Both the position numbers and the translations under genes were made by a program. From Rhizaria sp. SCN 62-66 (Eukaryota), in the NCBI GenBank assembly GCA_001724265.1, contig MEDY01000263.1:1-53238 (forward strand): DNA of 53,238 bases, in the 5' to 3' direction. The stretch's first letter is position 1; the number at the start of each line of letters is the position of its first letter. Positions 14,420 through 53,238 of the stretch are shown in pieces. The notes under the pieces were generated by a model. It did no database searches, was not told where the DNA came from, and was given only the letters and a program-made list of their open reading frames with translations.

Positions 14420-14835
14420 ATGTGTGGTACGGTAGCGCCATGAGTTGATAACGTAATTATAGAAAACTAGAAACACTTGTGGGCGTGGGGGCGATGCTTG
14501 TTGCATCTCCTTTCTTGCGCTACACACACACTTCGTGATACAAAGAAACATTCCACCAACACATGATTTTCAAGATCTATGAGTAGTTGCAACTGTTTGT
14601 AATTGAGAGTTTATTGTGATTGTGATTTGAGATAATTCAGAAAATGGCTTCAAAACAACACGGCCACCACAAACGATACTTTTTTTCAAGTTGTTCCGCC
14701 CAAGCCGACGACACGCCAATGTTCAAGTCGATTTCGGGACTTATCATCATGCAAAGCGGACCAATCAGACATACATGTAAACAATTAAATTATAATTTCA
14801 TATTTCCATTTCATTTTCCTTCTCATTCCTGCAGC

Positions 14836-29028: not shown

Positions 29029-29063
<35 letters not shown>

Positions 29064-29086
29064 ACAGCAGCTGCAGCAGCAGCAGC

Positions 29087-29141
<55 letters not shown>

Positions 29142-32052: not shown

Positions 32053-35000
32053 GATGCAAACATGATAAACCTGCATAGGCACCAAATGCCCTTCAATTGC
32101 TGTTGTCGCTGTTGTTTTGATCTTGATAACGCCTGTCTCAGTTTCTTTGTCTTCCTTCTGTCTCCGTTTTTAGACGGGACCATTTCTTTATTCTTGTCTC
32201 ATCCATCTTGCCTTTCTGCATTACTTTTCTCTGTGTCGAGCTCATGTTCCTATCTTGTGTTTCGTTTTATAATTATTATTTCTTTTGTGCTGTTTGTCAA
32301 CGTATTCGTGTCGTGTGTATATCATACGTGTGAGGTTTTATCTTGTTAGGTTTTATCTTGTTTTGTTTCTGTTAAGCGTCCCACTTTTGTACAATCGACT
32401 CTAGATATCGATGTGGTTAAGGCAACTACTTCAGACTACCTTTTTTCCTTCTTAACTCATTTTTCCTTCTTCACTTTTCGCATTCTTTTTGTTGGCCATA
32501 TCTTTTGTTGTAAAGTTTGAATGGAATTCTCACGTGATTGACTTTTTCACTATTGACATTAAGTCTAGTTGTCGTTGTCGTGTCGTTGCTGCCGACTTAG
32601 CGCACAAACACAAAAACACTTCCACACTCTCACAATAGCACCATCACATGTACTCACATCTGCGCATTGCACACACACACATGCACATTCCGCACCATAT
32701 TCCACCACAACTTGTATTGTTTGCGCCGCACAGCACTGCTTTGCCTTGCCGTTGCCGCAGTTTATCACTCCACTCTTCATACGCCCACTCTGCACACGTT
32801 TTATTCGTCCCGTATTATTGTCTCTTGCTTCTCACACACATGCCCGCACTTGAGTCTGCGCCTGTACATGACATTTCTATCCGTATCAGTGTCTGAGTGT
32901 ATTTGTGTTGGCGATGTGGTGACTGTTCCTGCTCATGTGGCTATTTGTGCCGCTACTGCATCTGACCGTCTTCCGCATCTCTTGCATGCGAGAACACTCG
33001 ACGCACTACTCAGCGTCGCGCGAAATTCGCGTTGCGATACGACACGATACGGTGTGGTGTGAAGTTTGAATGCACGCGCAATATGTGTGCAAAGTGGAAC
33101 CAGTGTGTCATCATTCTGCCGCGCAATGTGCGCTGTATTTTTGATGGCCGTTTTAGCCATGACTTTCAGTCTATCGACGGCAGTGAGGTGCTCGCTAACT
33201 AGAGCTAAGAGCTCATGATGCGAGTCTCTCTGTTCGGACGCTCTGCACTGGGGTTGTCACTGCATGCATGTGGAGTATTGATGATTCTCTCTTTACCATA
33301 ATTAAGTTTACCCAACAAAAGTGTACACGTAGTCCCAAGTAATATTCTATATGTAGTATTTATATCAGCATCTTTCATCATCATCATATTTTTTTTATAA
33401 CATTCTTTTTTTAACCACCGCACGCTTTTTGTTTGTCGTACCCAAACTCCTCTCGTGGCCGCAGTGCTTGCCTCACCCACTCCCACATTCAATTACACTG
33501 ACACCTACACTCGAACGCGTTCTTTGCCTGCGTCCTTGAGCGTGTCCGTGGCAGTGTCTGGTACTGACCAAGCCCGCCCGCGCTGGCACACACTCATGCG
33601 CTATCGTTATAGCGCAGCCGCAGGTCCGCGTGCCCCTCGAATGTTTAATCCCAACTCCTTTCTTCCCAACGTACACCACCACAAACACGATTACCATCAC
33701 TTCATCGGCACATATCTCGCACGGATTGCGTATACCACGCATTGCGTGTGCGTGTGTGTGCTTTTCTTCTTCGTTTTCCCCACTGCTGCGAATGGAGCCC
33801 ATGCTCATCCATGCACTTCACTGTTGTCACAGTTCAGTTATAACACACACTTATTGTATACTCACACAGTCACACGTTATGCTATGACCCGCTGGATCGC
33901 TCACTCACTCACGCGTCTCAGTGCGTTTTTTTGCTCAGAGTAACTGTGCCAGTCGTTACAGTCTCTCTTCCCGACCAAACTCTGAACGCGACTGTGTCAT
34001 TTTAATTTGTACTTTATGCCTGTGACTGTGCCTATGACTGTGATTGTGCGGCAACTGCTGCCCCGCACTCAACAGATTTGCCCAATAGATACTGTGACCA
34101 TACCACTGGACAAGCGGTATCTGAGGACATTAACGAAGCACGCCGATTTTTGTGGCTTGCTTGCACTTTACTCACTAATTCTTCCCCACCCGTATTATTC
34201 ATCTCTGCGGACGGGCTATACGACGTATATAAGCACCGCTGCTACCCGCTTTATTGGTCTAATTTCACACCCATCACCATTGTCTAACACCTCACTTGAT
34301 AACAAAACAAAAACAAAACAAAAAGAACAATAACATTCATTTCAAAAATTTACATAACAAAAAAACACTATTCAAAAATAACACAACACACACTATGTCA
34401 CATGTCAGTTTTCTTTATAACAATTATTTCCCTTCCGAAAACGCAACCTCTCGCAAATCATATCCTGTCGTCTCAACTAACAAGAAAGAAAGCAAGAAAC
34501 CTCAAGAATGCTTCGCTAGGACTTGACTGTTTTCCCCTTCATCATCGACAACACCCCCGTGCCCTCTGCTCAGTGTGCTCTCATCCCGCTTACTTTTTAC
34601 TGTTGACCTTTGCGTTCCTCGATAACGCTATTTCTTTTATTGCTTTTGGTTCTACTTGTCTATTACCGTTTCCTGTTTGTCCTTTGTCTTTTGCGTTTTT
34701 CGTTTTCGGTTTTTCATTCAGCGTAGATGTTTCTTTGCATGTCTTTCTAAATATTAGCTTAACCTAGCATTTTGTCGTGATTGATTCTACTCTCTCATTC
34801 GCCTCCGTCGTCATCGTTGTCGTAATCACTCCATTACACCATATCCTTCTGCACGTTCTTGTACATTGTATGTTAGTACTCGTTCTCTCTCTCTTGCGCA
34901 CACTTACTCGTCCACACGAATCGCGCGTGATGGTGTGAGTGGTGCTCATTGGGGACGGTATTTATCGCTCCACGGCGCGCCACTGTTGCCGTTGCAGTGT

Positions 35001-37361
35001 TGTTGTTATTGTTGTTGTTTCTGTTTATGTTGTGGCTGCTAATTGTATAGTCGGATCGCCCAGCCACACACTCACACGCACACACAACACACTTGCAATC
35101 ACACCTAGTCACGACACACGAGTCCAGTTCGACATACAATCATCGACTTCCCACCACACAGAACAACAAAGCACATCGCCAACGAGCACAGCTTAGCACC
35201 GACCAGTGCTTCGCACAATCTTTCTCTAGTTGTGCGTCCCGCACTCCACTGACTCGAACTCGTATAATATCACAGACACATCAGCCCAGCTGTTGCGGGC
35301 GATCACCTGACGGGGAGCCTGGTCGCACTGCGTTGCATGCTGCGAGGAAGCTTGATGAGGACGCGAGCGAGTGCTGCTGCGTTGAACACACAATCTCCTC
35401 GGTCGCATTGGCTTTATTTCGTGTTTTTGTATCGGTTCTTTGTGACATATTCGGAAGTTATTACTTTTTTCTTTTTCTTCCCTAGGCTTTTTTTTTGTCA
35501 TTCCCTTTTGTTTTGTTTTGTCAGCTCCCTCTTTATAGCGCACTCGTACGTACACTCAGTCATCCAACACAACGTATGCTAGTTTGCTCGTTTTATCGGA
35601 CCTTTTACAGTGCATTAGCACAGCTCCACCCCAAAGCATAGCATAGCAGAACACACCCTAGCACGCCGCACTGCGTAACTGAGGGCGGCGGCGGGCATTT
35701 GAACATGGAGACCCTGTCCCATCACTGTCAGTCGCTCTCGTTATCGCTGTCGTTGTCTACATTAACCCTACCACTGAACAGTTGATGTTTTAGAACATGT
35801 TAGATCACGCTGTTTACACTACAGTGTGGCACTTTTTCTACTTTGTTGTTTGTTTGATAACGACGAAACGTCTAGTATTAGCCACTTCTCTCTTCTTTCT
35901 TCTTTTGTCCATTCACTTTTCTTCACGTTGTTTGTTCGAACGTACAACTCAACCAACATTCACTTGCGCTTGTGAATATCACATGATACACTTCTGAACT
36001 TAGTTTACACAAATATCACACTTCATTTTCTCCTTTACTAGTATATGTTGTTGTCAAGGGGGAGCACTCGCGTCTGATCGCCTTTTTGACCAAAAACTGA
36101 TGAATGCCCGAAGGCCAGCTTGATTACATTACAATGGTTGCTCGTTGGCTGGACTGTCGAGAATTTTTGCAGTCGCCGCCATTCCTCTCTCTCGGACGCG
36201 GCTCGATCCACGAATGGCACCGGAACTGAAAAAATCGACCAAAAAAATGCTGCAAATTAAATATGTTAATGAAGTACGTGAATATGAGAGTGAAAAGAAG
36301 AACATACGAGACGAATAGATCGCGTGCGTATCACAAGCGTAGATTTTGTATTGTTTCTGGTTTTGCTGTCATATTTGGCCGCGGTATCTCGTCCCAGCCG
36401 ACGAACTAAGCCGGTTCAACTCCGACTTGTCACGCCGATGACTGGGGACTTCAGGAGAGACAACCACGGACGGGGCGCCCTCGCGCCACCGGGCAAATCT
36501 CCATACGAAAGTACTCAACGAGTTTCCGTAGTGAAGAGGCTGGGGGGATCGCGAGGGCTGCACTGCTGCAAGAAAACTAGCGTAACGGGGAAGGATCAGG
36601 TAAAAAATAGGTGGGGTTGAAGCGACACACGGCGTGCATAACCATAATCGTATCACAAATACTATAAGCCGACACACGTCCAGATAGAGCTGGGACGAGT
36701 GAAAAAACAACAACAATAAGGATGTGTGTGGACTATGGTTTACCGCCTACAGCCGAACTTAAAGGTTACTTTCTTCATCACAAAGCAAAGCTAAACTCAG
36801 AGAGCAGAACAGTGCCGTACACCGCAGCTGGATCGCAACGTGGGCTGCTTTGTTAAGTGACAAGGGAGGCGTCTCAGTCATGAGTGCGGTGACCTGTGAG
36901 ATTGTTTTTCCGAGTCTGATGTTGGTCCGCATTTTGGCAATGTCTGTCACAAGCATGAAATAGAAACGAACATGCCTCCAGCATGTTTAATGTCTTCATG
37001 GAATTATGATCACAAACCATCATGTGAACATGGACAGAGCAAAGCAGAGCAGAGCAGAGCAGACAAGCAAGCAAATGGAACGAAGTTTTGGGGTGTCAAT
37101 CGATTTTTAAAAAAAATATGAAAACAAAAATTGCTGAAAATAAACGGAACGAAAGACACCGCACCGCACTAGAGCGCGCTATAAGGAAGGGCATATCACC
37201 ACTGCATCATGTGTTCGGAAAGAAAAAACACTATGAAAACAACCGCGTGTTGTTTTCAGAGTTGCATGAACGAAACACTCGATGTTTACACACGTATATG
37301 GTACACACGGTTAAACAGTGTGCGCGTGTGCGTGTGTGTGTTGCAGCGGTGTAATGTAAGC

Positions 37362-38399
37362 TTACGAACGCTGGGGGATCTTCGCAACGCCACCGCCATT
37401 GCCACCCTGTCCCAGCCCGCAAATCACACCCATATACTTCTCATCATCGATATCCGACTCGAAGTAATCCTTCCGCATCTTAAAGAACGCCGCCGCGGTG
37501 AGGAGCGCGTCAGAGCCGGCCTGATGCTGAGGTCCCGTACGGTTGACTTTGAGTGTCTCAGCGACTTTTTGCAGTCCACCACGGAGGTTCTCGCACGACT
37601 TCATCATGTACTTGAGGTCGTAAATAACAGGGCAGTAGAGCTGAAGCGTGTCGAAGAACGCTTCCTGTGACGCAGGCATGTTGTTGCATGTGAGAAGCTT
37701 CAGCAAGTAGCCGAAATCAAACCCGGCATGGAAAGCGATCCACCTTACCTCAGGGTTAAGCACGATGCCAGACGTCATTAGAAGCTCGCCGAAGTCGCGC
37801 CACTCGATGCCGCGCGCGGTCAGCAGGTCAAAGTTGATGCCGGAGTGAGAGAGCAGGTTAACTGCGTCGGCGGCGTGGACGTCCTTCTCGCGGTTAAACT
37901 TGAAGTTGAACTGCCAGCAGCACATATTGGGAATGTAGTTGCCGTCCTTGTCGCACAGGCAGATGCCGAGCTGGATGACGCGCAGCGCGTCGACGTTGTG
38001 GCGCACTGTGGCGTAGTGGTACTCGGCCGAGGAGCGGAAGGTTTGGGTGGGACGGGCGACGACGCCGGGGAATTCCGTGTCCATAGCAACGTAGTTATAG
38101 GTGTCGATGAGCTCGTTGATCTTGCGGAACTCTTCCTGGAGGTTGTCCGCCCAGACTTCGATGATTTCCACACGGCACTGTGTTGGGGCGAGGGCGAAAT
38201 AAGATCAGAGAGGATTGAATGGACGGTGAGGAGACGGAAAAGGATTAAGCGTTATCAGTCAAACGGTGAAGGAATGTGAAAACATAGAGCGTGAAGTTAA
38301 GCGCACCTTGTTGTCAGATGGAACAGCAATGTCCTGGAGAGGGTCAGCGGGGGGCATGACCACGGGTGGGACCCCGGGAGGCCCAGTACGGGTCGACAT
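37362..38399 (-). CDS. CAF1: CCR4-NOT deadenylase subunit CAF1/POP2 (CNOT7/8); exons 38399-38307 and 38177-37362
   Basis: EVWADNL, YVAMDTEFPGVVARP, WQFNFKF, FHAGFDFGYLLKLLT, YDLKYMMKSC, GPQHQAGSDALLT (DEDDh residues intact). Ends TAA. Confidence 0.97.
38178..38306 (-). other. Spliceosomal intron (129 nt, phase 0) of CAF1
   Basis: AAG|GTGCGC donor and ACACAG|TGC acceptor. Joins a 31-codon ATG exon in frame to CRVEIIEVW. Confidence 0.85.
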
Positions 38400-39001
38400 T
38401 ATCTGTCTTTGTGTGGAGTTGTGGTTGTGTAGAGTCTAGGGCGAGAGTCGCCTGCTAGCGGTGCGTAGAAAGGTCTCTGCAGCTACTCGCACAAAAACGA
38501 GGCGGTAAAGACGGTCTAGAATAAAGAAAAATGACAAAGAGATCCACAGTGTAATTGTGAGTGCTTCAAAGTGGTTCGAGAGGGACGAGCTGAGCGTCGT
38601 CGCCACAAAACGAGTCGGATGCAGTCCTGGCACTGGATGGGATGCGAGACCACGATAGAGAGCAAAACGAGTGAAGTTTCTGAACGAATCGCAGACTTAA
38701 AAATTCTGTTGCGTAGGCACTTATTAATCTGACGACGCTGTCTGTCATAAACCCGGTCACAAGATGAATCCCCTACCTCAATTCATTTTTGGTCAGCCCT
38801 CTTTTTTTCGGTCCAAAGCTTGGCCAAGAGAGCCGTTGAAGGTTCAAAACTTGGTGCGCTTAAAAACACAAGCTAAACATCATGCACAATCGTCATTTTG
38901 ATTTAAAATTTAAAACACTGATATTAAATGCTATGAATCATTTAAATTACTTATAAAACCTTTTCTGCACTCTATGTGTGTCACTTTCCAACAGATCTGA
39001 G

Positions 39002-40564
39002 ATGCCGCAAGGGGACCCTTTCCAGGAGAAGGCCTATCGCGGCCACAAGGGCTCCGTCACCTCAGTGGCATTCAACCCGAACCAGAAGCAAATCGCTTCA
39101 GGCGGTGACGACGGCGTTGTCATGATCTGGTACATGGATCCCCAGCTACGCGCGCTACGTTTCCTCGGCCACTCTGGTCCCGTCACCCATGTGACCTACT
39201 CGCCCGACGGTTCCCTTGTCGCCTCCGCGTCAGTGGACGGCACCGTCCGCCTCTGGGAGCCCACAGTGCGCGGCAAGTCCGCCATTCTCAAAGCCCATTC
39301 TTCCGCCGTTCGCAGCGTCGGCTTCTCCCCCGACGGCCGTTTACTCGTCACAGCGTCCGACGATAAATCGGTCAAAGTATGGAACGTCGCCGCCCAACGC
39401 TTCGTCTGCTCTCTTTCCGGCCACTCGAACTGGGTCCGCGCCGCCGCTTTCTCCCCAGACGGCGAGCTCATCGCCTCCGCAGGCGATGACAAGACAGTGC
39501 GGCTGTGGGACTGGCGCGCGCAACGCTGCGTCCACACCTTCTACGAACACTCCGGCGCGGTCAACGCCGTTGCTTTCTCAGATTCAGGCGCTGTCCTCGC
39601 CACCGGTGCCTCGGATAACACAGTCAAGGTCTGGGACGTCGCGTCCCTCCGCCTGCTTCAACACTACGCTGCCCACGCCGCGCCGATCGCCTCTCTGGCC
39701 TTCGCCGGCCGTGGGCAGACCCAGTCCTTGCTCTCGGCTGGTGAGGACGGGGCGCTCAACGTCTGGGCTCTGGCTGAAGGCCAGCAGCGGTACGCCATCG
39801 CGGGCCACCGCGGCGCTGTGCTGGCCGTGGCCGTGGCGCCCGGGTCAGCGCGCTTTGCGACTGGAGGTGCCGACGGCGCTGTGCTGGTGTGGAACGCTGG
39901 CGCTCTCGCCGATGATTATAATCCCCACAGTAACACGGCTGCGCAGACTGCTGCCCCGGGTGCCACGGGCACGGCGCCGAAGTCTGCGCGTGCGGCGGTC
40001 CGGCCGGCGACTGCGACGACTGCGGCTACTACGAATGCGGTACCTGTGAGTGCGCGTGCGGCTGCTGCATCGGCACGTGTTCCTCCAAGCGCCCGCCTTA
40101 ACGCGAACAGTCACAGTGTGAATCCGCTTAGCAACAGTGTGCATAGCGCCAACACTGCTGCTTCTGCCGCTCAGTCTGTCAACTCTGTTACTAAATCTGC
40201 TCCTATCGCTTTGCAGTCTGCTGTTTCCCAGTTTGCAGCTCAGTCTAGCTCTGGTAACGGTGCTGCCCCAGTCCCAGTCGCGAGTGATGCGACGGGGACT
40301 TCTGCGGCCGTGCTGTCTGCTCTGTCCGCGCTCTCTGCGCAACTTGGCGCTGTAGCGGCCGCAGTGTCCCGCCTCGAGAGTCGTATGGACGCCCAGGAAG
40401 CCGCTCTTGCGCAGCAGGGCTCGATGTTGAGTCAGCAGGGCGCGGCACTGAGTCAACAGGCGGGGGCGCTTGAGATGCTCCGGGCGGAGGGCCGTGAGAG
40501 GGATGTGCTGCTGGCGGAGGCGCTCGGGGTCGACACGGGCGCGACTGCTGATGGCGCAGAATGA
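39002..40564 (+). CDS. POC1: POC1 centriolar protein (7 WD40 repeats + C-terminal coiled coil)
   Basis: DPFQEKAYRGHKGSVTSVAF, QLRALRFLGH, LKAHSSAVRSVGFS, SLSGHSNWVR, LLQHYAAH. C-terminal LSAQLGAVAAAVSRLESRM resembles the Poc1 motif. A short upstream exon is not excluded. Ends TGA. Confidence 0.9.
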   Translation: MPQGDPFQEKAYRGHKGSVTSVAFNPNQKQIASGGDDGVVMIWYMDPQLRALRFLGHSGPVTHVTYSPDGSLVASASVDGTVRLWEPTVRGKSAILKAHSSAVRSVGFSPDGRLLVTASDDKSVKVWNVAAQRFVCSLSGHSNWVRAAAFSPDGELIASAGDDKTVRLWDWRAQRCVHTFYEHSGAVNAVAFSDSGAVLATGASDNTVKVWDVASLRLLQHYAAHAAPIASLAFAGRGQTQSLLSAGEDGALNVWALAEGQQRYAIAGHRGAVLAVAVAPGSARFATGGADGAVLVWNAGALADDYNPHSNTAAQTAAPGATGTAPKSARAAVRPATATTAATTNAVPVSARAAAASARVPPSARLNANSHSVNPLSNSVHSANTAASAAQSVNSVTKSAPIALQSAVSQFAAQSSSGNGAAPVPVASDATGTSAAVLSALSALSAQLGAVAAAVSRLESRMDAQEAALAQQGSMLSQQGAALSQQAGALEMLRAEGRERDVLLAEALGVDTGATADGAE

Positions 40565-40852
40565 GCCTGGAAATGTGCGAACGCTTTTCCTGAGTGGTTT
40601 ATCCAGCTCTGGTCTGTGAAGGGCCATACAGACTGATGTGTAATGTGGGGCCAATTTGGAGCCTGCAGACATATGCAGCATTTTTATAACGTGGTTAAGT
40701 GCACGACGCGTCATTGCCGAAAAAATACAATCACAACAACTCCTGCTTTAACATCATCAGACGCTTCTAAACATGCGATATGCGTATGATCGAGATCCTA
40801 ATACCATCCGTCTCCGGCACCATAGTGCGCTTGCCAGCGTAAATTAACTTAT

Positions 40853-41627
40853 AAGTTTTATGAGACAAAACGTAGATTTCGTGCAAGAGAGAAGATAATT
40901 GCTCAAAGGTCAAGTGAATACGCGCCGTTAGGCGCACGTGCATGCAAGCAGCAACACTTAACCGAGCTCACAAGAGAGCGTGCGCACAATGATGCACTTG
41001 AGCGTAAACTTGAACCGAACCGTGCCCTTGGTGGACAAGAACAAGTTGTACTTGAGCAAAAACAACAGCGTAAGCGTGCACGTGTGCGTGAATGTCTTGG
41101 AGAACAGTAGCGACTTCAACATCAATGGCAGGAGCGGCTGCGGCCAGCGCAACGCAGTAAAGCATACTCTACCAAGGCTTTTCATGTGAATCAAACGCTA
41201 AGCAAGGGCAGGAACAAAAGCAAGAGCAGATGAATGAGTGAGAAGTGTAGCTCGTGAACCGAAGAGATGATGGTTTGCCTTTGTTTCGATACGTTCCACG
41301 CGTACTCCCTGCCCCTGTAACCGCTGACATGCGCTCGCCGCGGAAACCTGAATGAGTTGAGCAACAATAGCAGCAGTGACGCCGGTCATAGCACGGATAC
41401 AAGTGTGTGCGGTTTGTGTCTCACCGATTATGTTGCTTAAAACGCTCCCTTGCTTTCACATGTTACACTGTGGTTGCATTGATCCGTGGCTAAAGCAGCG
41501 CCTTAGTTGCCCAATTTATCGGCACAACTTTGCTGAGTTATTGAATGAGTACAAGTTCAGTTCTTGCAGCGTTTTTGAAGATGAGGTATCGACGATTAGG
41601 ATGCAGATGATTCGGATGTTAACATGA
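40853..41627 (+). pseudogene. Decayed coiled-coil + RING-H2 E3 ligase gene
   Basis: CAVC...LKTLPCFHMLHCGCIDPWLKQRLSCPIYR has the last Cys replaced by Tyr and a shortened loop. Upstream E/Q/R-rich frames (ALERKLE..EQKQQRKRARVRE; LPLFRY) are broken by several TAG/TGA stops and frameshifts. Boundaries are approximate. Confidence 0.7.
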
Positions 41628-42016
41628 GCGCGTTAGAGCCAAGAAATGAGTATTAATCGTCGTAAAGCCACGATGATATCGATAACTCTAGGTAAATCAA
41701 ATGTTTTTTAAATATGATCATATTCAGGTTTGTACAAAGTTCTCTCATAAAACTTACTTGAAGATGATGCGTCAGATCACTCGGTCACTTCGAACTGAAA
41801 AGTCGTCATATCTCGATGAAAGAAAAGGTTCATGTGTTGTATCCAGGAATTCTAACAGTATGGCCTTTTACAAGCTCTGTGCTAAGCAGTATATGAACAT
41901 AACTGGCCTGGAACGCAAGCTGAGTTCGCGTCGAAGTCAATCTTGTGCAAGTTCAGACAAAAAGCCACCCAACGAATTGATACCACATATAAAACAAACA
42001 TCAATTGCTTGCAAAT

Positions 42017-43352
42017 TCAAAAGCCGTCGTAAGCAAAGCGACTGTGCGGCACAACGGGATCAATAAAAGGCATCGTCGGCCTCGCCGCAAAGACAGACAC
42101 CTCCGCCTTACTCGCCCCATCACCGCCGCTCTGAACTCCAACAGCAGATACAGCCGCTGCATTGGCAGCGGCGGCGCGGGCCTGCCCGGCCGCTGCCCGC
42201 CGAAGCCCCGCAGCCGGCGCCGCAGCAGCGCGCGCACGCGCCTCTGTGTCAACAGCAGCGGCTAGCTCCCCTGCGCTCACAGTCCGCGAGAGAGAGCTGC
42301 CAGGCGCCGAACTCCCGTTTGTGGTGGAAATAGCGGAAGCGAGTGGGAGCACGCGTCCCCAGTGTTCCCCACCGTAGGGCTGCTGCTGGGCTCCCAACCG
42401 GGCGCGGCGGGCTTCGGCGCGCGCGGCGGCGGCGGCAGCCTCGGCTGGGGAGGGTTGGAACTGGCGGCCGAGGCCTTTACGCGCGCCGGCAGCGGGGATG
42501 GCTGCGGCGGCGACGGCGAGGGCCGGGGTGAAGGCGGCAGCGCCGGCGGCGGAGGTCGTCTGCAGCTGCGACTGCAGCGGCAGCGATTGTGAATGTGATT
42601 GCGGCTGAGACTGCTGCTCCTGTTGTTGTTGAGTGGATGCGCTTGAAGTGCTAGTATCGTCGATGGGAAGTAGAGCCAGAGCAGCGCGGTTACGGCGGGC
42701 CTGCGCGGCTGCGTCGGCCTTACTCCACGCCGTCGTCATTGCAGCACCGTTGTCGAGAGCATGAGAGGCCGAGCTCGCGTTCGTGGAGGTGATGGCGGCG
42801 TTAGTGCTGTCTGTGATGTGAGGTGCAATGGCGCGGTGTGCGGGAGCAGTCTCCCAACGGGCAACGCTCGCAGCGCGCGCGGTCAACGGCGCCATAGCAT
42901 AGGCGGCACGGAAAGCCTCCGCCAGAGTCGGCTAGCTGTTGGCACCAGCGCTAGAGCGAGAGCTAGAGCTAGAGCTAGAGCTAACAGTGTTGTTGCTGTT
43001 GATTGTGTAGGAGCCAGTGGACGCTAGGACTGAAGAGCGTGATACCGAAGTCTTTGTGGCGGCAAACGCGCCGTACGTGGCGTTGCTAGCCTGGATCGTG
43101 TTCAAGCTCGCGTCAGTGATGGGAGAGGCGGAGGCGGATGTGTGGAGGGGCGCGACACGGGAGTGGTCACCTGAGAGCTGTGCTGCTGTGTCTGGAGGGC
43201 CTAATAGGGTACCCCACGGGACGGCGCCGAGGTGTGGGTGGCTAGGGGGGATAGTGAATGGCTTTGTCGCGCGGTGAGGCTTGACGGGGCGGGCCGTGCC
43301 TGGCTGCATGCGAGGCGGCATGATGAGTTTGGGCTTCTTGTAGTAGAACTCT

Positions 43353-43414
<62 letters not shown>

Positions 43415-43583
43415 GGCCGGTCACAAAGCCAATGCAGAAAGAAGGAAAATGGAAAGTTCATGAGTGCTGATAAATATGATATATAATCTATCACGATTTT
43501 GTTTACATAGTTTATCGGAATGTCGTCTAACGGAGATTGTGATGATCATATCCAATGTGAATTTTCGCAGAGGGTGGAAGCAT
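42017..43583 (-). CDS. Unknown protein; predicted exons 43583-43532 and 43350-42017, with one in-frame TAG at 42934-42932
   Basis: ORFs 42932..43321 and 42017..42895 share one frame (..GANS-TAG-PTLAEAFRAAYAM..). Acceptor (CT)nTCAG at 43351 and a phase-1 donor C|GTTAGA at 43531 give MLPPSAKIHIGYDHHNLQFYYKKPKLIMPP. Ends TGA. Confidence 0.65.
43355..43412. repeat. (AG)29 microsatellite forming the polypyrimidine tract of a minus-strand intron (43351-43531)
   Basis: Perfect dinucleotide run abutting the minus-strand CAG acceptor. Confidence 0.9.
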
Positions 43584-43774
43584 TGGAGTTGTGTGTCAGT
43601 CTACCAAGCCACAGCTCGGTGCCGGCAGTTGATCTTTACGAGTCGCGAGAAAGAATAAATCAAGGTGTGCTGTATTTATACTATATCCACGTTATAATAC
43701 CATATCTAATCTATATCTATCGCATATTCATAAACTTCCCCACGCTATACTTCAAGTGAGGCAGGGCGTGCAAC

Positions 43775-45043
43775 ATGAGCCAGCACAAGTCGCACCCAGA
43801 ACAGCAACATGAGCCACAAAGCGAACCAGACGAACAGGAAGCAGAGATTCCCTCCGTCTCCGACTCTGTCGCAGACATCCTTGCGGCCACGCGACTCGAC
43901 AGCGACCCAGACACGCTTTCCGCGCGTCTCTCCCATCGCATGTCAAACCCCGTCATGGCCGCCGCCATCGCCGGCCTCAACTCCCCTCAACCTCAGCCGC
44001 CACTGACACATGGGGAGACTCCCGCCGGAGGCGACGACGACGACGAATCCGCCGGCACGTGGGTATCCCGCGCCGACATCTCTCGCGTCGCCGCGATGAA
44101 ACGCGCCTTCGACTACGCCCGCAGCGAGCTCGATGACGCCCTCGACCGCGCCGCCCGCGCCGAGGCCGCCCTCGCGACCGCGCGCTCTGACGCCGCCTCC
44201 GCGTCCCTCGCAGCCGACGCCGCGCTGGTCGCCGCCCGCGACGAGCGCCGCCGCGCGCTGGACGAAGCCCGACGCGCCCGCGAGCGCGCAAGCGACGCTG
44301 ACGCTCGCGCCGCCGCTCGGTTAGCCGAAGCGCAGACTCTCCGCGCTGACAAAGCCGCGGCGGAACGGGAGGCCGCCGCCGCGCGCGCCGAAGCCGACAA
44401 AGAGCACGCGCACGCCGTCACGCTCGCCGGGAAGCTCGAGCGCGCTGCTGCAGAGGCCGCGCGCGCCGAGGATGCCGCCGCTGAGGCCGCCGCGAGTGGG
44501 AGCGCCGCCGCCGTCGCGACAGCCCGGGCGGAGGGCATGCGCGCAACCGTGGCGGAACAGGCGCTGCTGCGGGCGCGGCGCGAGCTGGCCGCCGAACGCG
44601 CTGAGGCAGATCGGCTGCGGGGGGCCGTAGAGCAGCAGAGGGCGGCGCTGGCGGCGGCGGCGGGCGCGGCGGCGGCGGTGGAGCGGCTTGAAACCGCGGT
44701 GGCTGACCAGCAACGCGGCTTAGCGGCTCTGGCAGCCGCGGCCACAGGCAACTACAACAGCGCCGGCGGTGGGGTGATGGCTGGCAATAGGGATGCCGTG
44801 GTCAAGGCGGCGGTGGCCGCGCAGGCGGAAGCACATGCCGCTGCTGTGGGCAAAGCCGGCAGTGACGCCGCCGCTGCGGTGGCCAAGGCGGCCGAGGCGG
44901 CGGCGGCGGCGGCGCGGGCAACGGCGGTGGCGGAAGCCGTGGTGACGGGCGTGCGCAGTCGGATCAGGGGGATTGCTGCGGTTGGCGCGGCAGTGTCAGC
45001 GGGAGCGCTTGCATTAGTCTTGGCTACGCTTGCTTTGGCATGA
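43775..45043 (+). CDS. Coiled-coil protein with C-terminal hydrophobic tail anchor, function unknown
   Basis: Long A/E/R heptad-like region. Ends GIAAVGAAVSAGALALVLATLALA-TGA with basic residues (RSRIR) just before. No signal peptide. Confidence 0.75.
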   Translation: MSQHKSHPEQQHEPQSEPDEQEAEIPSVSDSVADILAATRLDSDPDTLSARLSHRMSNPVMAAAIAGLNSPQPQPPLTHGETPAGGDDDDESAGTWVSRADISRVAAMKRAFDYARSELDDALDRAARAEAALATARSDAASASLAADAALVAARDERRRALDEARRARERASDADARAAARLAEAQTLRADKAAAEREAAAARAEADKEHAHAVTLAGKLERAAAEAARAEDAAAEAAASGSAAAVATARAEGMRATVAEQALLRARRELAAERAEADRLRGAVEQQRAALAAAAGAAAAVERLETAVADQQRGLAALAAAATGNYNSAGGGVMAGNRDAVVKAAVAAQAEAHAAAVGKAGSDAAAAVAKAAEAAAAAARATAVAEAVVTGVRSRIRGIAAVGAAVSAGALALVLATLALA

Positions 45044-45095
45044 TGGGACTACAGTGTCACCGGGAGCGCTAGCATGAGTCTTAGCAACACTCGCT
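44991..45095 (+). repeat. Imperfect 44-bp duplication of the tail-anchor coding segment across the stop codon
   Basis: 44991-45034 versus 45052-45095 (cagtgtca.cgggagcgct.gcat.agtctt.gc.ac.ct.gct). Confidence 0.8.
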
Positions 45096-45508
45096 CCCAT
45101 GAGAGAGGGTAAAGTGACAGCAGCTGTTTGGACAGACTCGTTTAGCTTCGGAATGCTGGTGTATCGCGATATATAGAAGGCGTATATAGTCTTTGACTGG
45201 CCATAGTACTAAGACAACTGCATAAAATGCAACAGATCACGTCATATATTAGCATATATACCTCTACAGACCACAGAGCAGACCAAGAATTGCGGGCGCT
45301 TAACTTAGTAATAGGAACTAGACTGGCCAGCAATGTGTTATGTACAGTGTAAGTGTACTTGTTGTTTGTGTAATAACCCTTATATTCAGCGAACTCAATA
45401 CATTTACTCGAGTCTTCGAACGAAGCAAGTGTGAGTCCCAGTCTAAAGTCTAAAGTCAACGAAACCAGTTGTTTTAGCATGATTTGTTGCTTTATCGCAG
45501 ACTTCAAC

Positions 45509-45531
45509 TCAGAAGCGACGACGGCCACCAC

Positions 45532-45570
<39 letters not shown>

Positions 45571-46861
45571 GGTTTCCACGGAAACTACCGTCACGGTCAC
45601 CGCCACCGCCGCCGCGGTTGAAATCACGGTCACGGTCACCACGGTCACGGCCACCGCCCTCGCGGCCACCACGCCCACCGCCACCGCGGTTATCGAACCC
45701 ACGGTCCCGCTCGCGGTCACCACCACGGTCCCGCTCACGGTCACCACGGCCGCGGTTGAAGTCACCACCCGAGTGTTCACGGTCACCACCACGGTCGCCA
45801 CCAACCCGGGGACCCCACTGGTCCTGCTGACTCGGCTGCTGGTTACCACCACCGCCATGGTGCTGTGGGTGGTTGAGGTACTGCAAGTGCGGCGGCAGCG
45901 GCTCCCCCTTAGCACGCAGCACGTGCGCCTCAGCGACCCCCGGAGGAAGCGCCCCTTCGCTGCACCGACCGGGCTGAGCCCGGCACAGCGCCTGCGGACC
46001 GGCGCGGGTCAGACCTAGCCCGCCGCCGAGCCGCCGCGGCCGCCAGTCGCGGTGTGTGCGGGCACGCTCTGTGTCGACGACAACACGCCGGCCCTGCAGA
46101 GGCTGGCCGTCGGCCTCGGCGAGGGCGCGGTTGAAAGCGTCGGCGGTCGCAAATTCGACGAAGGCGTAACCGGCGGAGCGTCCTGACTTTGTGCGCGGGA
46201 TAATGACCTTTGTGACAGCGCCGAAGAGAGCGAACTCGGTCCGCAGGTCGTCCTCGGTGAGGGTGTAGGGGAGGCGACCGACGAAGGCGGTGAGTGAAGG
46301 GTTGGAGGTCCAGCCAGAGACGGTAGACGATGAAGGATCGTTCGGGGTGTCTGTGTGATGTGATAAGAGCAAATTGTGCAAACGCAAAGATAAAACAGCA
46401 ATGGGGCAAAGGGGCGAGGGGATTGAGTGAGTACAGATCGCAGAGAAGTGAGACATTGTAAATCAAGCCATTATAGTGTGTTACCCTGATACAAACGGTA
46501 TCCTACAGAGATAAATAAATTTCATAGAATTGTGATTTGAAAGCAGGTAAAGAGATAGTGAGTTGTGAGCTCTCAGTCCTTGCTTTGGACCTCGGTAAGA
46601 ATACGTACATGTCTCGAGGCCCTGCGCAATGCGAGCAGCGGTCTCTTCCTCGCGGGCCTCGGCAATGGCAAGCTTACGCTCAGCGCGCGACACCACAGGC
46701 GCAGGCGCAGGCATCTCGCGGGCCAGGAAGCGTGTGTAAGGCGCGACGCCCTCATAGCTGGCGGCAGAGTCAGAGCGGCGCGTCTCGAGGGGTGCCGCGA
46801 ACGGCAACGGGGGCCGCGGCGCAAAGAACGCCATCACCTGCGGCGGCAGGTAGTGAGACAT
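45509..46861 (-). CDS. SNRNP70: U1 snRNP 70 kDa protein; exons 46861-46609 and 46350-45509
   Basis: MSHYLPPQVMAFFAPRPPLPF N-terminal domain, RRM (TAFVGRL, SAGYAFVEF), VVDTERARTHRDWRPRRLGGGLG, RD/RGG tail. Ends TGA. Confidence 0.96.
46351..46608 (-). other. Spliceosomal intron (258 nt, phase 1) of U1-70K
   Basis: ACAT|GTACGT donor and CACAG|AC acceptor, giving GLETYTPNDP in frame. Confidence 0.88.
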
Positions 46862-47466
46862 CGCGGAGCGAAGGGGTGGCTACGGCAGAAGCGGTAGCGG
46901 CGCGGGTGGAAGTGGTTAGGGCTGAAGTGGACGAGTCTTGCGGAGTGCACGTCTCAGCGGGGGGAAAGGGACGTCTCTATGGAAGCGGAGATGCACAGAA
47001 TATAAATTTCAATTAAGTGTCAGAGTAAATATTGACAGCTTCAGTGCATGCAAACTATACCGATGCTTAGTGTCGGTGTCTATGGGTCAATAATCAACGT
47101 CATATTATCGCTTCTGTCGACTGCTGTCCGAATGACCGTGAGCAACGATCGGGTTGATCAGTCAATTTGCGATAGCCTCAAGTGCCATAGAGAGCTCGCT
47201 AATATATATGGCACTCAAATATTGTTAATCAATGTGGCGAATCTATATGCTCTTTGATTGCTACATGCATTCAATCACGTTATCCTAGTCTCTGAAATGA
47301 AACGCCACTGTGATCTTATCTCACTCATGTGCTCCCTCCTCAACCCCACTTCCGCCCACTTTTCCCTTTCCGAACCTTCACCTTTCAAGTTTTTTTCACG
47401 CCATCCCACAGGCGTTGCTTTATCCTACGCAGAGACACCGTGCTACGACTTTAACCTTATCTCCCA

Positions 47467-50400
47467 ATGAGCGCGGCGTGTCCCCCTGCGCCGGCGCTGG
47501 CGGCCGCCCACCGTCCTTTGCCTCTACACGCCCTCCACGCCTCTGTCGGCATGCGCCCCGGTGCCACCCAACTGCGTGGGAACGGTCTGCCGCTTACTCG
47601 CGTTTCCTCTTCCTCTGCTGCCGCCGCGCGCGGGCTGGAAGCGTTGCTACACGACCCTGGCGTCGCTGCCGCCTTCGCCAGCGGACCCGGCGCGTTAGCC
47701 CATTCAGCGCCTCCGGCGCCTCTCCAGTCCACCACCACCACAAACAACAACTTGAACTCTGGCTCGCCGGCGCGGTTCAACTCGCTGGGGCTCGCGCCTG
47801 GGTCCGCCGTGGCGCACGCGCAGCCCGAGCGGCGCCCGTACGTTCCCGCCGCGGTCGCTGGCCCGAATAGCCCCATCGGCAGCGCGGGCGCCACCCCGCT
47901 TGTGGCTGCGACGGCGGAGAACCCGCTCGGTCTGCCGCTGGAAGCGCGGGCTGCTTTGGCGCAGTCCGCCGCGAGGGGCGGGCCCGGTCGCGCGCATCCG
48001 CCGCCGCTGCGGTACGCGGGGCTCGAACTTCCCTCCGCTCCTGGCCTTGACGGTGACAGCTCCACCACAAACGACGACAACAACAAGCTGAACAACAACA
48101 ACCTGAGCACGAATATCGGCGCTGCAGCCGCGGAAGCGCACGCCAACGATCTCGCAGCCCGTGGTTTTGTTGCCGGTCGAAATGCGCTCGACTTCGCGCG
48201 TGAGACCAGTGTCGCGCCGGCGACTCCGCCGCGCGGACTGAGGACTGACGCGGGCACTCAAACCCCCAGCGCTTTTTCTTCTCACAGCAACAGCAACGGC
48301 AAAGGCAACGGTATCGGTATTGGGGTTAACACCGCCGCTGCGACGTCACTGCTGCTTCCCCCTGCACTCCGCGCATGCTCCCCTCTGGCCCCCTCACGCG
48401 CCCTCGTCTCCGCCCCTTTGCCCGCCCGCGCCGCCGCGGCACTGCGATCGCACCCTTTGTGGTCACAGGCCTCCCCGGCCGCGCTGGCAGCTGCCGGTGC
48501 CGGTCTTGGCGAGCTGCTACGACGCGACTTAACTTCGCGTTTCCCAGCACTCTCTGTCCCTGCACCTGTCGCGCTTGATCTGGCTGCAGTTGTCACCGGC
48601 TTAACTTCTCGAGACGCGGGTACTTGTGGCGGCTTAACTTCTGGAACAGGTTCGGCAAACTTAAGTGCGGTGCTTGTGCATGCGTCTGTGGAGCGAAGGG
48701 AGGAGGATCATGCACGTGCAGTTGCTTTCCTGCTTGAAAGGGCTGCTGCACGTGTGATTGAGCTGCTTGCACCGACTGAAGCAACGGCGATAAACGCAGA
48801 TAACAAGAACAACACACACAGTGGCAAGAGTCAGACAAGTGGTAACTCAGTAGCAGAGTCGCCGGTGCAGTATCAGCACCCACTGCTCCGGTCGCATCAA
48901 TGGCCTGCTAGCACAGTCGCCTCAGCGGGTTTCGCGACTCCGTCAACCGCGACTACGACTCTGACTGGCACTGGCGCTGGCGCTGGCACTTGCGCTGGGG
49001 TTGAGAGCAATGCGGAGTCCGTGGCAGCACTGACGAGTAGAGGTTTTGCTCCCGCGTCAAGACCGCAGTCACCGCGCAACGCACAGGTACACTCGCATGT
49101 TCCATCACATGTCCCGTCACAGGTTGAGTCACATGCGCAGTCGCCAAAGGGCACTGTGGGTTCTGGGCGGTGGGTGGCGGATAGCGGCGCCTTGCCTCCC
49201 GCTGCCACGGTGACCACGTGTGCTGCCGAGGTGAGCCACCGACACAGTCTCGGTCATGGTCATGGGTGCTCTCACACGCATGGTCACACGCATGTTCATA
49301 CTCGCGGTCACACTCGCTGTCACAGCCACAGTCAGGGTCGTGGTGAGACTGAACGCAAACGCGGTTCGTCTCCGTCCCAGTCTCGCTGCCGCCGTTGCCG
49401 CTCCGCCGCCGCCGTCGTCACCGGCACCGGGTGCGACAATCACGCAGCAACGACTGCAATCATGCAGGGAATGGAAAAAGAGGGGCAGCGTGAGCGCCGC
49501 CGTCAGCTGCGTGACATCCTCCGCAATCTCGCGTCCACATCAACCGTCGCTGACTCCACAGCAGACTCGAGTGCGCTGCTCTCAAGCCCGCTTTCCTCCA
49601 GCCTTCACACTGCGCTGAAGCGGGGCTCAGCTGGTGCTGGGGAGAGGCGTGACGAAAGCAGGGTGTCTGCCTTGCGTGCTGCAGTAGCTGCTTCGACTGC
49701 CGCCGCCGCTGCTGCTCGCGCAGCTGCGGCGACTGCGGCGGTGGAAGACGCGAACGACGATGAGGACGATGGTGGTGGCTCTATGGGCGTGTACGACGAC
49801 TACAACGTGTACGACTATGACGCCGACGACAGCGCTGACGAACAACAACAGCAGCAACAACAGATTTCTCAGATGCAGCAGCCAAACTGGGCAGCAGCGG
49901 CGCCAGACACTGCGTCTGCACCTGTTCCCGCTTTCCGCAACCATCAACAGCAACACCACAGTCAACAGCAGCAGTCTCAGTCTCAGTCTCAGTCTCAGAA
50001 GCGACTGTGGTATGATGACGAGACTCAAACGCTGCCGCCGCCCTCGCCGTCACGCGAAGCTGTTGGTGCCTGGCGTATCAGCGAAGCCGTCGGTCCATGG
50101 CCCCAGAGACAGCTGCAGCAGCAGCAACATCAGCAACGGGCTCAACAGCAGCAGTATGCAGACACCGAAGCAGCCGATGACTACGTCAACAACAACAATT
50201 ACTCCGACAACAACAATTATTCCAACGGTAACAACGATGATGGCTATGACGACGAGGTTGAGGGTGAGGCCGAGGCTGACTACGATTCGGCTCCCGCTTT
50301 CACACAGCCCCAGGCGCCTCCCCAGGGCCCCAGCGGTGGGGCTGCATGGCTCCTCCAGCAGCCCGAGCTTGCCGGTCTCGGCCCCTCGCTCATCCCCATC

Positions 50401-51408
50401 GCCCCCCGAGCTCCGCTCCGGCCCGCCCACGCCTCCCGCGCCGCCGCAGCCGCCGCGGCGTTCCGCGCCACCGCGGCGCTGACCGGCCGCGACGTGTGCC
50501 TCGCTGCCGGCGCCCGGGTGCGGCCCCTGGCGGCTGCGCTCCGCGCGGACAACGGCGACAGCGCCAGCGGCAGCGCGTTCGATGACGACGACGAAGATGG
50601 TCGTGTCACTGGCGAAAAGGACGCTGAGAAGCCTGGAACGGAGGATGGAGCTAGACCTGAAGCTGACGCTGATGCTGGAGCTGGAGCTGGAGATGGGAGT
50701 GTGATTGCTGAGGTGGGTTTCGCCGCTCCGGGCCTGCGGTGGGACTCGACCGCTCCCAACTCTGGCGCCGCTGTTCTGGACGCCGCCACCCGTCTGATCA
50801 CCGCCCGCATCCTCCGTTCTGGCCTCAGTGAAATCCACACTGCGCTCGGCCGTTTCGCTGCCGGAATCGAGCAGGCCGAAGAGTCAGCCGCACTCGCCGC
50901 CGCCGCAGCCGCGGACGCTGCGGCCGCGAGGGCCAAGGCGGACCGCGCTGCTGCGGCCGCGGCTGAAGACGCTGCTGAGCAAGCGCGTCTTGCGGAGCTC
51001 GGCTTTCGCAACACCGCTTCCGATGACAACAACTACGACAACGACAACGACAATGATGATGATGATATTGTCGGGGGAGACGGCGCAGCGCTGAGTCTTG
51101 GTAAGCCAGTGCCGTTGCCGCCGCTGCCCGATATCGCCGCTGCTATGGCGCGAGCCGCGGCGCAGGCTGATGCTGACTCAAACGCCGCCAACGCCGCCAC
51201 CGCCGCCGCCAACGCGGCTGAGTTTGCGGACACTGAGGCGGCGTTGGCTGGAAACAAATGGAAGCCTCCTGTCGTCCCGTTGCCTCTGCCTCTGCCTTTA
51301 CCGGTCCAAATCCAACAGCAGCATCAGCAGCATCAACTGCAGTCGCAGGCACAGCGGGCGAACCCCACAGTCAGTCCGCGTGAGCCTCTCGGGAAACTCC
51401 GCTTTGCA

Positions 51409-51439
<31 letters not shown>

Positions 51440-53022
51440 CAGCAGCAGCAGCAGCGGCAGCCAGTAGTGCGGGAGCCGGCTCCGGGGTGGGTGTGGCAGT
51501 GGCAAGGCCTCCTGGTGACGGCCCCGGCGCTGGCGCCAAGGGGCCGCCGCGGCGCAGACGGCGGGTGGCTAGACGCGCGCGCGGGGGGCGCGTGCGGGGG
51601 AGCCTGACTCTGGAGCAGATTCCCGAGGGCGGGGGCGCGGATATGGACGACGATGACGACGACGAAGAGTACATTGACGATGATTATGATGACGATGCAA
51701 GCGAAACCGACTATATCGACGACGCCGAGTCCGAGTCGGCTACAAACAGCACCACCGCCGCTGCCGCCGCCTCTGCCGCCGCCGCCGCTACTGATGCTGC
51801 TGCCCCCGCCGTCAGCGATGATAACGAAGCTGACGAATACGCCGACGACTTTGCCGACGACGACAGCAACAACGCCAACTCCAACAGTGCAGCGACTAAA
51901 GCAGTCGCGCCTTCTTCTTTGCTATCCCCTGCTGACTCAGCAGCTGCGGGGGCGGCGCCCGGTTCAGCTCCCGCCTCTGGCCGCCGAACCGGCACCGGCG
52001 GCCCTGCGCTGAGCCTCGGCGCCGCCGGTCGGCTAATCGCGGATAGGGCCCGCGCCGCCCGCGCCGCTGCCTCCCTAGTCGCAGTGGCGCAGGACGCGGT
52101 CATGACGGCGCAGTATACGGGTAAAGACGCGTTTGTACAGGCTGCCGTGAACGCGCCCGACGCCGCCGCCGCTGCTGCTGCGCTTGGGTCTACGCCGGAG
52201 GCTGTGAAGGCACCGGTGATTCAGGATAAGGATGAATATGATTATGGTGACGATGCGTTTGAGTCTGCCACCCCCGCTGCCGCTGCTCCCGCTGCGGTTG
52301 TTGGTGCTGCGTCGATTGCGCCGACCGCAATCGCACTCGGCTCTGTCCCCGCTAGCGCACCCCCTGTTGCTCCGAATGGTGATACCGATGAGAGCTTCGA
52401 GATCGACGTTCCTGACTCTGCCCGCATCCCTGCCGCTGGCACAGCCACTGCCACAGCCAGTCAATCTAGCACTGGAGGACCTGCGGCGGCGGTTAAAAGC
52501 TCTCTCCCGTCTGGCATGCCTCCGCACGGCTCCACCGCGGCCGCCTTTGCCGCCGCGGCAGCTGAGGTTGTAGCGCGCTCTGGCGGCGGTGGGATCTGGC
52601 CCGATTTGCCGGGGGAAGTCGACGAAGATGCAAATCTTTATAATAGCAACACTGGTAACAACGCTGGCGTTGGGTTTCTCCCGTCGAACTCGCATTATAG
52701 CCACAACAACAACGCCGTCTCCGCTGTTGCTGCGGCGACGAGAGGCACTGGGGCGCGTGGCCCCCCGTCGGTGACCGTTGCTGCCGGGGCGGAGATTGAG
52801 GACGAGTACGCCGACAACAACAACTTCGGTTTCCCGTCCTCAGCCGTTGTTATGGGGCGCAATGGTAGCGACGGCCGGAGTGCTTACCCGCCTGCGATGC
52901 GCACGCCCGCGGTGCCTGTGGCAGCGGTTGTGGATGGCCGGGGAGAGTCGGATGTTGAGATTGAGCTTAGCGGGGATGAGCAAGAGAATGAGACTGATAT
53001 CGAAGTTGAGCTCTCTGACTAA
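47467..53022 (+). CDS. 1851-aa largely low-complexity/acidic protein of unknown function
   Basis: Uninterrupted 5.5-kb ORF with the same composition as neighbouring genes. Ala, Gln, Asp and His tracts, no recognisable domain. Ends TAA. Confidence 0.8.
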
Positions 53023-53238
53023 CGGGGAAAACGAGTAATATAGCTTAAGTTATGACTCGTAAGACTGACATCGCACCCCAGAGATCCGTCGCTGATATAT
53101 GCTAACAATATCGGGGAGCTGTGTGAGTATATTATATAAGTACCCCCGATGTAGAGGTTTATGAAAAAACGTGTTTTCCGCGATTTTCGCGCCTTGGTGC
53201 GCACTTTTCTATTTCACTACGAGCGAAATATTCCATCG

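Follow-up and report, generated by a model that had tools for sequence, protein, structure and literature searches.

Reassignments of UAG alone in nuclear genomes have been described in a rhizarian (to Leu), in Iotanema spirale (to Gln) and in ciliates, as an initial annotation of the DNA studied here had noted and as the published accounts bear out (PMC5304391, PMC11687900). For the rhizarian exLh, the report gives 384 in-frame UAGs in 71 genes, with 56 genes ending in UAA and 15 in UGA, and it describes Iotanema spirale as well (Panek et al. 2017, PMC5304391); in phyllopharyngean ciliates, UAG is read as Leu or Gln (McGowan et al. 2024, PMC11687900). Stop codons have also been reported in frame within genes of Amoebophrya sp. 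ex Karlodinium veneficum (Bachvaroff 2019, PMC6394959), and in Fusarium and Neurospora, premature UAGs undergo restorative adenosine-to-inosine (A-to-I) editing (PMC10776026, PMC4817773). Here we describe a 53-kb stretch of eukaryotic DNA (contig MEDY01000263.1, 53,238 nucleotides, analysed as a whole and called the window below) in which two genes are each interrupted by an in-frame TAG, at 42934 in gene 1 (TAG no. 1) and at 9393 in gene 2 (TAG no. 2), and in which no supported gene ends in TAG. We hold with moderate confidence that UAG is no working terminator in the host lineage and is instead rarely used, as a sense or read-through codon. The initial annotation had proposed as much, and the proposal gained from gapless homology across TAG no. 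2 and from a TAG-only pattern in relatives; its focal site at 42934 turned out to be ambiguous.

TAG no. 2 lies in a gene that has recognizable relatives over most of its length.

7261 to 9810, minus strand: gene 2, member of a lineage-specific family, ending in TGA.
9391 to 9393, minus strand: in-frame TAG no. 2, codon 140 of the 849-codon gene, opposite Ser in P0003 and P0009 and opposite Gly in P0004.

This second in-frame TAG was present as the initial annotation had described it (CAT CTC TAG CTC GAG). With the codon read as X, gene 2 encodes a protein of 849 residues, and its family combines an ARM/TPR-like N-terminal part with a conserved C-terminal domain (...WFI.YKPCP.SLLRGAVPVGRV...). 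A search with gene 2 (8,000 scored candidates) returned four significant matches, namely, the window's own called protein and three relatives with 32 to 40% identity. P0009 (837 residues, the longer member of one relative's cluster) aligned in a single stretch over residues 29 to 843 with 39% identity (E = 3e-156), P0003 and P0004 likewise aligned on both sides of TAG no. 2, and the TAG occupied one column of the gap-free local alignment with the three relatives. Because removal of an intron would delete aligned residues, TAG no. 2 is not intronic, and this UAG in conserved coding sequence cannot be removed by splicing. Gene callers have split gene 2 into two open reading frames (ORFs), one of 139 residues (P0132) and one of 698 residues that starts at M152 (P0002). 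Three sources contributed the 6 contigs that carry the exact 139-residue ORF ending at TAG no. 2, and 3 contigs carry the 698-residue remainder; TAG no. 2 is therefore reproducible across assemblies and no one-off assembly error. No Pfam family was found for gene 2, and matches in the Atlas were sub-threshold leads only. An exact stretch of 60 bases spanning TAG no. 2 had 0 matches among genome contigs, and the gene 2 family (A1) gave 49 pattern matches in viral contigs and 61 in prokaryote genome contigs, none of which was confirmed.

Metagenome contigs of the Joint Genome Institute (JGI) were scanned with the gene 2 family, and 117 pattern matches yielded 16 related loci, all from one metagenome, with a GC content of 0.48 to 0.62 and 28 to 52% identity to gene 2. 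On translation, the matched frames of most loci contained in-frame TAGs. Well-aligned in-frame stops, judged by eye from paralog alignment on both sides, came to 11 TAG versus 1 TAA and 1 TGA, as follows (locus and position).

L001-137, L002-785, L003-3046, L004-1236, L006-127, L007-479: in-frame TAG, counted.
L008-8372, L008-8504, L008-9188, L009-841, L011-1554: in-frame TAG, counted.
L006-457: in-frame TAA.
L013-1395: in-frame TGA.

TAGs in poorly aligned stretches (L005-857, L007-701, L009-955, and L015-422) were omitted from this count. The raw tblastn count, which includes low-complexity matches and evident pseudogene pieces, was 14 TAG, 2 TAA, and 7 TGA in 7,315 codons, and TAG occurred in the family at about 1.5 per 1000 codons in the relatives. 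From the codon content of the family, 46 to 48% of nonsense mutations are expected to be TAG; the probability of at least 11 TAGs among 13 stops is 0.006, and with so large an expected share, a majority of TAG proves little on its own. The conserved C-terminal FRPV of L003 stands after a TAG and before the family's usual TGA.

The frequency of each stop was set against that of ordinary amino acid changes in six close paralogs (L001, L003, L004, L007, L008, and L010; 3,526 homologous codons). Each homologous stretch began at the contig edge or the B-box and ended at the conserved final TGA or with the contig itself; premature stops played no part in setting these limits. Pairwise values were 0.22 to 0.38 for synonymous divergence (dS) and 0.35 to 0.61 for the ratio of nonsynonymous to synonymous divergence (dN/dS). 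The six paralogs held 7 TAG, 0 TAA, 0 TGA, and 1 frameshift. The expectation was taken from each member's single-step changes off the majority codon, in columns with a majority ancestor, and came to 6.1 TAG, 4.5 TAA, and 3.9 TGA at the missense rate and to 19, 14, and 12, respectively, at the synonymous rate. In the same columns, 5 TAG, 0 TAA, and 0 TGA were seen. With 5 TAGs versus 6.1 expected, TAG thus behaves as an ordinary amino acid change, whereas TAA and TGA are purged (0 versus 8.4 expected; P = 2e-4), which is to say that in-frame UAA and UGA are selected against. The TAG pattern in the six paralogs is that of a sense codon and is unlike that of pseudogenes.

Some members of the family showed further peculiarities. 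A B-box zinc finger opens several of them (L003, 361 to 480; L008, 8261 to 8370; L010, 555 to 710), and the conserved TAG that immediately precedes this zinc finger is probably a 3' splice site, in which case the first exon would lie farther upstream. The TAG at position 382 of L003 (M-NDTNDF-TAG-B-box) was accordingly dropped from all counts: it is kept in L008 and L010, where similarity collapses upstream, and, judging from this alignment, it is probably a splice acceptor. In L007, the family ORF at 479 to 961 continues past a second TAG. Beyond it come what remains of a ubiquitin C terminus (ESTLHLGG) and a complete ubiquitin-like domain (Pfam, E = 1.5e-24), with TAA as its stop. L006 carries the sole in-frame TAA in a well-aligned member (position 457) in addition to a TAG opposite a conserved Glu, and this copy may be a true pseudogene.

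The ends of genes were counted as well. Where the initial annotation had found no TAG among 16 supported gene ends, an independent tally returned 9 TAA, 7 TGA, and 0 TAG, and the low probability that it had quoted for a TAG share of 25% was reproduced (P = 0.010). At shares of 20%, 15%, and 10%, the probability is 0.028, 0.074, and 0.185, respectively; in most eukaryotes, TAG accounts for near 20% of gene ends. Family genes at the related loci ended in TGA (10) or TAA (1) and never in TAG (11 ends, not independent), and the six other genes on these loci ended in TAA (4) or TGA (2). UAA and UGA were thus used as terminators and UAG was not, at 0 of 16 ends in the window and 0 of 17 at the related loci, which is a small sample; for 22 roughly independent ends from both sources, the probability of finding no TAG is 0.007 at a TAG share of 20%. 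The tally of 0 of 16 is by itself only suggestive, and the two in-frame TAGs lift the pattern above chance. Seven ORFs of at least 90 codons with a positive coding score do end in TAG in the window, and five of these are antisense shadows of real genes, while the other two correspond to the interrupted genes, being their upstream halves. Among the about 12,900 genic codons of the window (38,673 genic bases), no additional credible in-frame TAG was found; the in-frame frequency is about 0.13 per 1000 codons. A frame at 34931 to 35785 (285 codons with no TAA or TGA and 3 TAGs) was rejected as a gene on account of its coding score of -0.10, its strand skew, and its low complexity.

TAG no. 1 stands between two ORFs that share a frame.

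42932 to 42934, minus strand: in-frame TAG no. 1, the focal site, flanked by two ORFs of the same frame.
42935 to 43321, minus strand: upstream half of gene 1, low-complexity with many Ser, Thr, Ala, and Pro residues; 129 codons when counted from the first ATG.
42017 to 42931, minus strand: downstream half of gene 1, which has 304 codons, a TGA stop, and P0007 as a relative.

The frame given by the initial annotation was confirmed (AAC AGC TAG CCG ACT CTG at 42940 to 42923), and beyond the TAG it stays open for 304 codons to a TGA at 42019 to 42017. Upstream, 162 codons are open, 129 of them from the first ATG at 43321, and this half had a coding score of 0.174 per codon, compared to -0.31 and -0.41 for other frames and 0.12 to 0.46 for confirmed genes of the window. 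Each half is of low complexity, and no Pfam family was found for either. The downstream half has a sole relative, P0007 (42% identity; E = 4e-25); neither a word-indexed search (8,000 scored candidates) nor a HMMER search of 1.84 billion representatives returned another, and neither returned a relative of the upstream half. The protein collection held no exact match to either half, and none of the 598 pattern matches of P0007 in metagenome contigs was confirmed. Homology to P0007 begins at T165, which is 2 codons past TAG no. 1 and 11 codons ahead of the first Met (M176), and extends to a common C terminus (FIDPVVP.SRFAY.GF); P0007 has 31 additional open codons upstream of the start of homology. 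Given the same-frame coding score upstream and homology that starts 2 codons downstream, coding sequence flanks TAG no. 1 on both sides. Since homology precedes any ATG, translation of gene 1 must enter from upstream, and there are three routes by which it could do so: ribosomes could pass the TAG, a splice could take the TAG's AG as its acceptor, or initiation could occur at a non-AUG codon.

If the standard code holds, TAG no. 1 would lie in a short intron, of 54 nucleotides or longer from an upstream GT; TAG no. 2 would be a nonsense codon fixed in a dispensable copy from a large family, or gene 2 would now operate as a pair of ORFs; the tally of gene ends would reflect chance together with a low TAG share; and the TAGs of the relatives would be a separate matter. 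We consider this account unlikely, and it is the alternative that survives best. Two introns bear on it.

42932 to 42985, minus strand: candidate 54-nucleotide in-frame intron, GTTAGC...CTAG, with GT..AG boundaries.
38178 to 38306, minus strand: proven spliceosomal intron of the CAF1 (CNOT7-like) gene, with an RNA joint 38177->38307 that skips 129 nucleotides.

The candidate intron, which the initial annotation had itself raised as a caveat, does exist at 42985 to 42932; it has GT..AG boundaries and a length that is a multiple of three, and the lineage does possess introns. The CAF1 intron, the only one demonstrated in the window, where most genes look single-exon, is 129 nucleotides long, has GT..AG boundaries (5' GTGCGC, 3' CACAG), and lies in phase 0 after 31 codons. 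It is pyrimidine-rich with a GC content of 0.47, unlike the candidate, which consists of Ser-codon repeats (Tandem Repeats Finder unit GCTAGA, 5.7 copies; GC content, 0.56) that continue the low-complexity coding sequence. Contigs from RNA runs X7 and X5 and from DNA or unknown runs X3 and X4 were aligned to positions 33239 to 53238, and 15 of 129 joints and 31 of about 3,060 contig pieces were listed. The CAF1 joint was present in X7 and X5 and absent from X3 and X4. At TAG no. 1, there was no joint, gap, or changed letter among the matches listed, and no listed piece bridges 42932; the bin depth there was 1.13 in X7, 2.51 in X5, 4.4 in X3, and 0.05 in X4. No 54-nucleotide joint is found among the 15 of 129 joints listed, which do include that of CAF1, and this speaks against the intron without being conclusive. 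Beyond the focal site, the standard code draws support from the three paralogs in which the conserved TAG before the B-box coincides with an abrupt loss of similarity, the pattern expected of a 3' splice site; from the ease with which 0 of 16 arises if the TAG share is only 10 to 15% (P = 0.07 to 0.19); from the known gene ends of a standard-code rhizarian, nearly all of which are UAA in the published account (Panek et al. 2017, PMC5304391); and from the nearly clonal population, in which a nonsense allele could be fixed. It demands, however, three coincidences within one 53-kb window, and it leaves the TAG-only pattern of the relatives in the gene 2 family unexplained.

A second alternative, which we rate as improbable, covers gene 2 and the relatives and holds the in-frame TAGs to be premature stops, the multigene family being in decay or serving as a silent gene reservoir. 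Frameshifted or fragmentary copies (L010, L013, L015, and L016) and the in-frame TAA of L006 are what such a family would contain, the residues opposite TAG are one step from TAG, TAG is the commonest expected nonsense codon (46 to 48%), and the TAGs are concentrated in the gene 2 family. The mixture of stops, frameshifts, and relaxed constraint typical of pseudogenes was nevertheless confined to individual copies (L010, L013, L015, and L016) and was not seen in the six close paralogs as a group. Their 3,526 codons held 7 TAGs and a single frameshift with neither TAA nor TGA, where a neutral rate would predict 26 TAA or TGA and 19 TAG; their dN/dS was 0.35 to 0.61 and not 1; and the ORFs stay open for hundreds of codons beyond the TAGs. 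Decay of one family would moreover leave both TAG no. 1 and the missing TAG terminators unexplained.

Gene-specific programmed readthrough, with UAG still a stop and the code unchanged, appears less probable again. In its favour, in-frame TAGs occur seldom and cluster in one family, and the base after both TAGs of the window is C; a C after the stop is a leaky context in eukaryotes. Yet among 18 sites, the +4 base showed no preference (G, 4; T, 6; A, 2; C, 6) and no common downstream motif was visible, the positions of the TAGs vary between paralogs rather than marking a conserved programmed site with a stimulatory 3' context, and the absence of TAG terminators would be left unexplained. A-to-I editing of UAG to UGG (Trp), as in filamentous ascomycetes, where it corrects premature UAGs in otherwise intact "pseudogenes" according to the accounts cited (PMC10776026, PMC4817773), is the least probable alternative, since Trp stood opposite none of 13 sites (the 11 well-aligned TAGs of the related loci and both TAGs of the window), no A-to-G change at 42933 was among the RNA-run differences listed (coverage of the spot was not demonstrated), and TAG terminators, which editing would leave unaffected, were not seen.

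Several observations weigh against UAG as a sense codon. A tRNA scan found 0 tRNA genes in the 53-kb window and 0 in the 16 related loci, and the window contains no eRF1 gene. TAG no. 1 is itself ambiguous, because its AG could serve as a splice acceptor, and TAG no. 2 is known from assembled contigs. Comparable codons outnumber TAG at least 30-fold in the window, and, as the initial annotation had remarked for the polyQ genes, no TAG stands among Gln codons (0 among 604 Gln codons in 11,662 training codons). The window's organism is linked to the relatives via one common family with 28 to 52% identity, and in the relatives, the TAGs keep to that family: 4,215 codons of other genes on the related loci held none (L008, 1,930; L016, 2,028; L001, 257), and all 3 internal TAGs of L008 lie inside the family gene (P = 0.025). 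The family also includes copies with clear pseudogene features: L010 and L015 are frameshifted, L013 and L016 are fragments, and L006 has an in-frame TAA. Finally, the residues of the nearest paralogs opposite TAG are S, S/K, H/Y/L/F, P/Q, D, Q, L, K, and E, with none prominent, and nearly all are one-step neighbours of TAG, as they would be for nonsense mutations. Similarity-weighted BLOSUM sums placed Q first, then S, and then E, whereas nearest-paralog sums placed E first and then Q, and a TAG stood opposite a conserved residue at one site only (Glu, in L006). On these sums, Gln would be a weak best guess for the amino acid inserted at UAG.

We infer that ribosomes read UAG in these genes. 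The host and the relatives that carry the gene 2 family would have lost UAG as an effective terminator, and their genes would end in UAA or UGA only. A cognate tRNA(CUA), or else near-cognate decoding of high efficiency, would translate the rare in-frame UAGs, and both interrupted genes would thereby yield full-length proteins. That the window's organism has the trait of its relatives is suggested by the one family common to them. UAG is rare and disfavoured, as fits an early or inefficient stop-to-sense reassignment, and a recent or inefficient reassignment, in which TAG builds up with a gene's rate of change, would fit the rarity of TAG, its concentration in one family, and the mixed residues opposite it. 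More tentatively, and with somewhat less than even confidence, we picture a protist lineage, possibly rhizarian, at an early stage of a change of UAG, with the codon purged from gene ends and re-entering coding sequence. At such a stage, UAG would enter at the ordinary missense rate and hence would appear first in a fast-evolving gene family.

The genes of the window are GC-rich with AT-richer spacers and form long single-exon ORFs on both strands. Pfam matches comprised a metacaspase with ankyrin repeats, FAM161, a protein kinase, GH81, a rhodanese domain, a large ankyrin protein, CAF1, a WD40 protein, and an RRM protein; an Rfam scan of the window gave 0 matches. DNA of the window was found in bioreactor, wastewater, activated-sludge, and fuel-cell metagenomes (7 studies), and among 14 runs listed, 12 carry at least part of the window and 4 carry at least half of its sampled words. 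The host is therefore an uncultured protist, and its lineage turns up again and again in metagenomes from bioreactors and wastewater that span about ten years. For the CaMK-like kinase of the window, the nearest named relatives, all single-domain matches, were from Plasmodiophora (62% identity), Lotharella (61%), and an amphipod transcriptome record (63%), and a metagenome protein was 86% identical to it; these kinase matches are a weak pointer to a rhizarian host. For CAF1, the Atlas offered no narrower placement than "Eukaryota." Rosculus vilicus, the one sequenced sainouroid, has a GC content of 37.7%, unlike that of the window, and Rosculus was ruled out as the host on this basis. Over the 20 kb from 33239 to 53238, 6 variable positions were listed for 4 runs from 3 studies dated 2017 to 2025, and the host population looks nearly clonal across plants and years. 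The FAM161 homologue and a WD40 propeller protein lie at 3160 to 6627 and 38957 to 40564. FAM161 is a centriole and cilium protein, and its homologue suggests a host with a flagellated or centriole-bearing stage.

Other features of the window stand apart from the question of UAG. Long ORFs overlap on opposite strands at 13364 to 14569, and both end in TAA; the plus-strand ORF at 13466 to 14419 has a coding score of 0.45 versus 0.12 for its partner, carries a (GGC)28 tract, and is probably the real gene of the pair. Very long low-complexity proteins with Met-, Asn-, and Gly-rich runs are encoded at 24103 to 32052 and 47455 to 53022, and an 81-unit GCA/CAG tract at 29028 to 29274 is read as polyGln; TAG is absent among the Gln codons of these proteins. 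Between 32050 and 37350 lies an AT-richer stretch of about 5 kb without a credible ORF, with a GC skew and an AT skew of about -0.2 each. Small contigs from RNA runs map to it (for example, at 33306 to 33613, 34522 to 34803, and 35647 to 35938), and the stretch may be a long untranslated region, a noncoding RNA, or DNA carried over in RNA libraries. Run X4 shows a depth spike of 647 at 36574 to 37240, compared to about 8 elsewhere; the bin includes a (CAGAG)n repeat at 37035 to 37063, and the spike is probably due to a short repeat common to other DNA in the X4 sample.

Nuclear changes of UAG alone are known from few lineages, and an independent and apparently young case, if true, would help to test the routes by which stop codons are reassigned. 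It would offer a natural snapshot of "codon disappearance then capture," which is lost from the known reassignments in which UAG is abundant. Among the literature matches listed, none described a UAG code change in a wastewater protist or, from wastewater, a genome of Rhogostoma or of Cercozoa with a code change. Gene callers that assume the standard code already split gene 2 in public protein sets (139 and 698 residues), and eukaryotic bins from wastewater metagenomes would therefore be misannotated. The missense-rate test, for its part, can be used on any multigene family in a metagenome without a genome at hand.

Compared with the described systems, as far as the published accounts of them extend, the present case shares features with each. 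As in Fusarium and Neurospora, otherwise intact genes carry an in-frame UAG in the DNA, but editing in those fungi gives Trp, which stands opposite no TAG here. Both fungi retain TAG as a normal terminator. Like Amoebophrya, the window shows stops within genes that otherwise look normal, in a protist that is uncultured or poorly sampled; in-frame stops are reportedly rare in Amoebophrya. All three stops are involved in Amoebophrya, whereas here TAG only is involved and TAA and TGA are selected against inside genes. The likeness to exLh, Iotanema, and the ciliates is that UAG alone is affected, that UAA and UGA terminate, and that UAG is missing from gene ends and present in conserved genes. 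The use of UAG is also uneven between gene classes both in exLh, where it is rarest in ribosomal protein genes, and here. In exLh, however, UAG is common and stands at conserved Leu positions, whereas in the window there are 2 in about 12,900 codons, and in-frame TAGs fall mostly at variable positions with no consistent residue.

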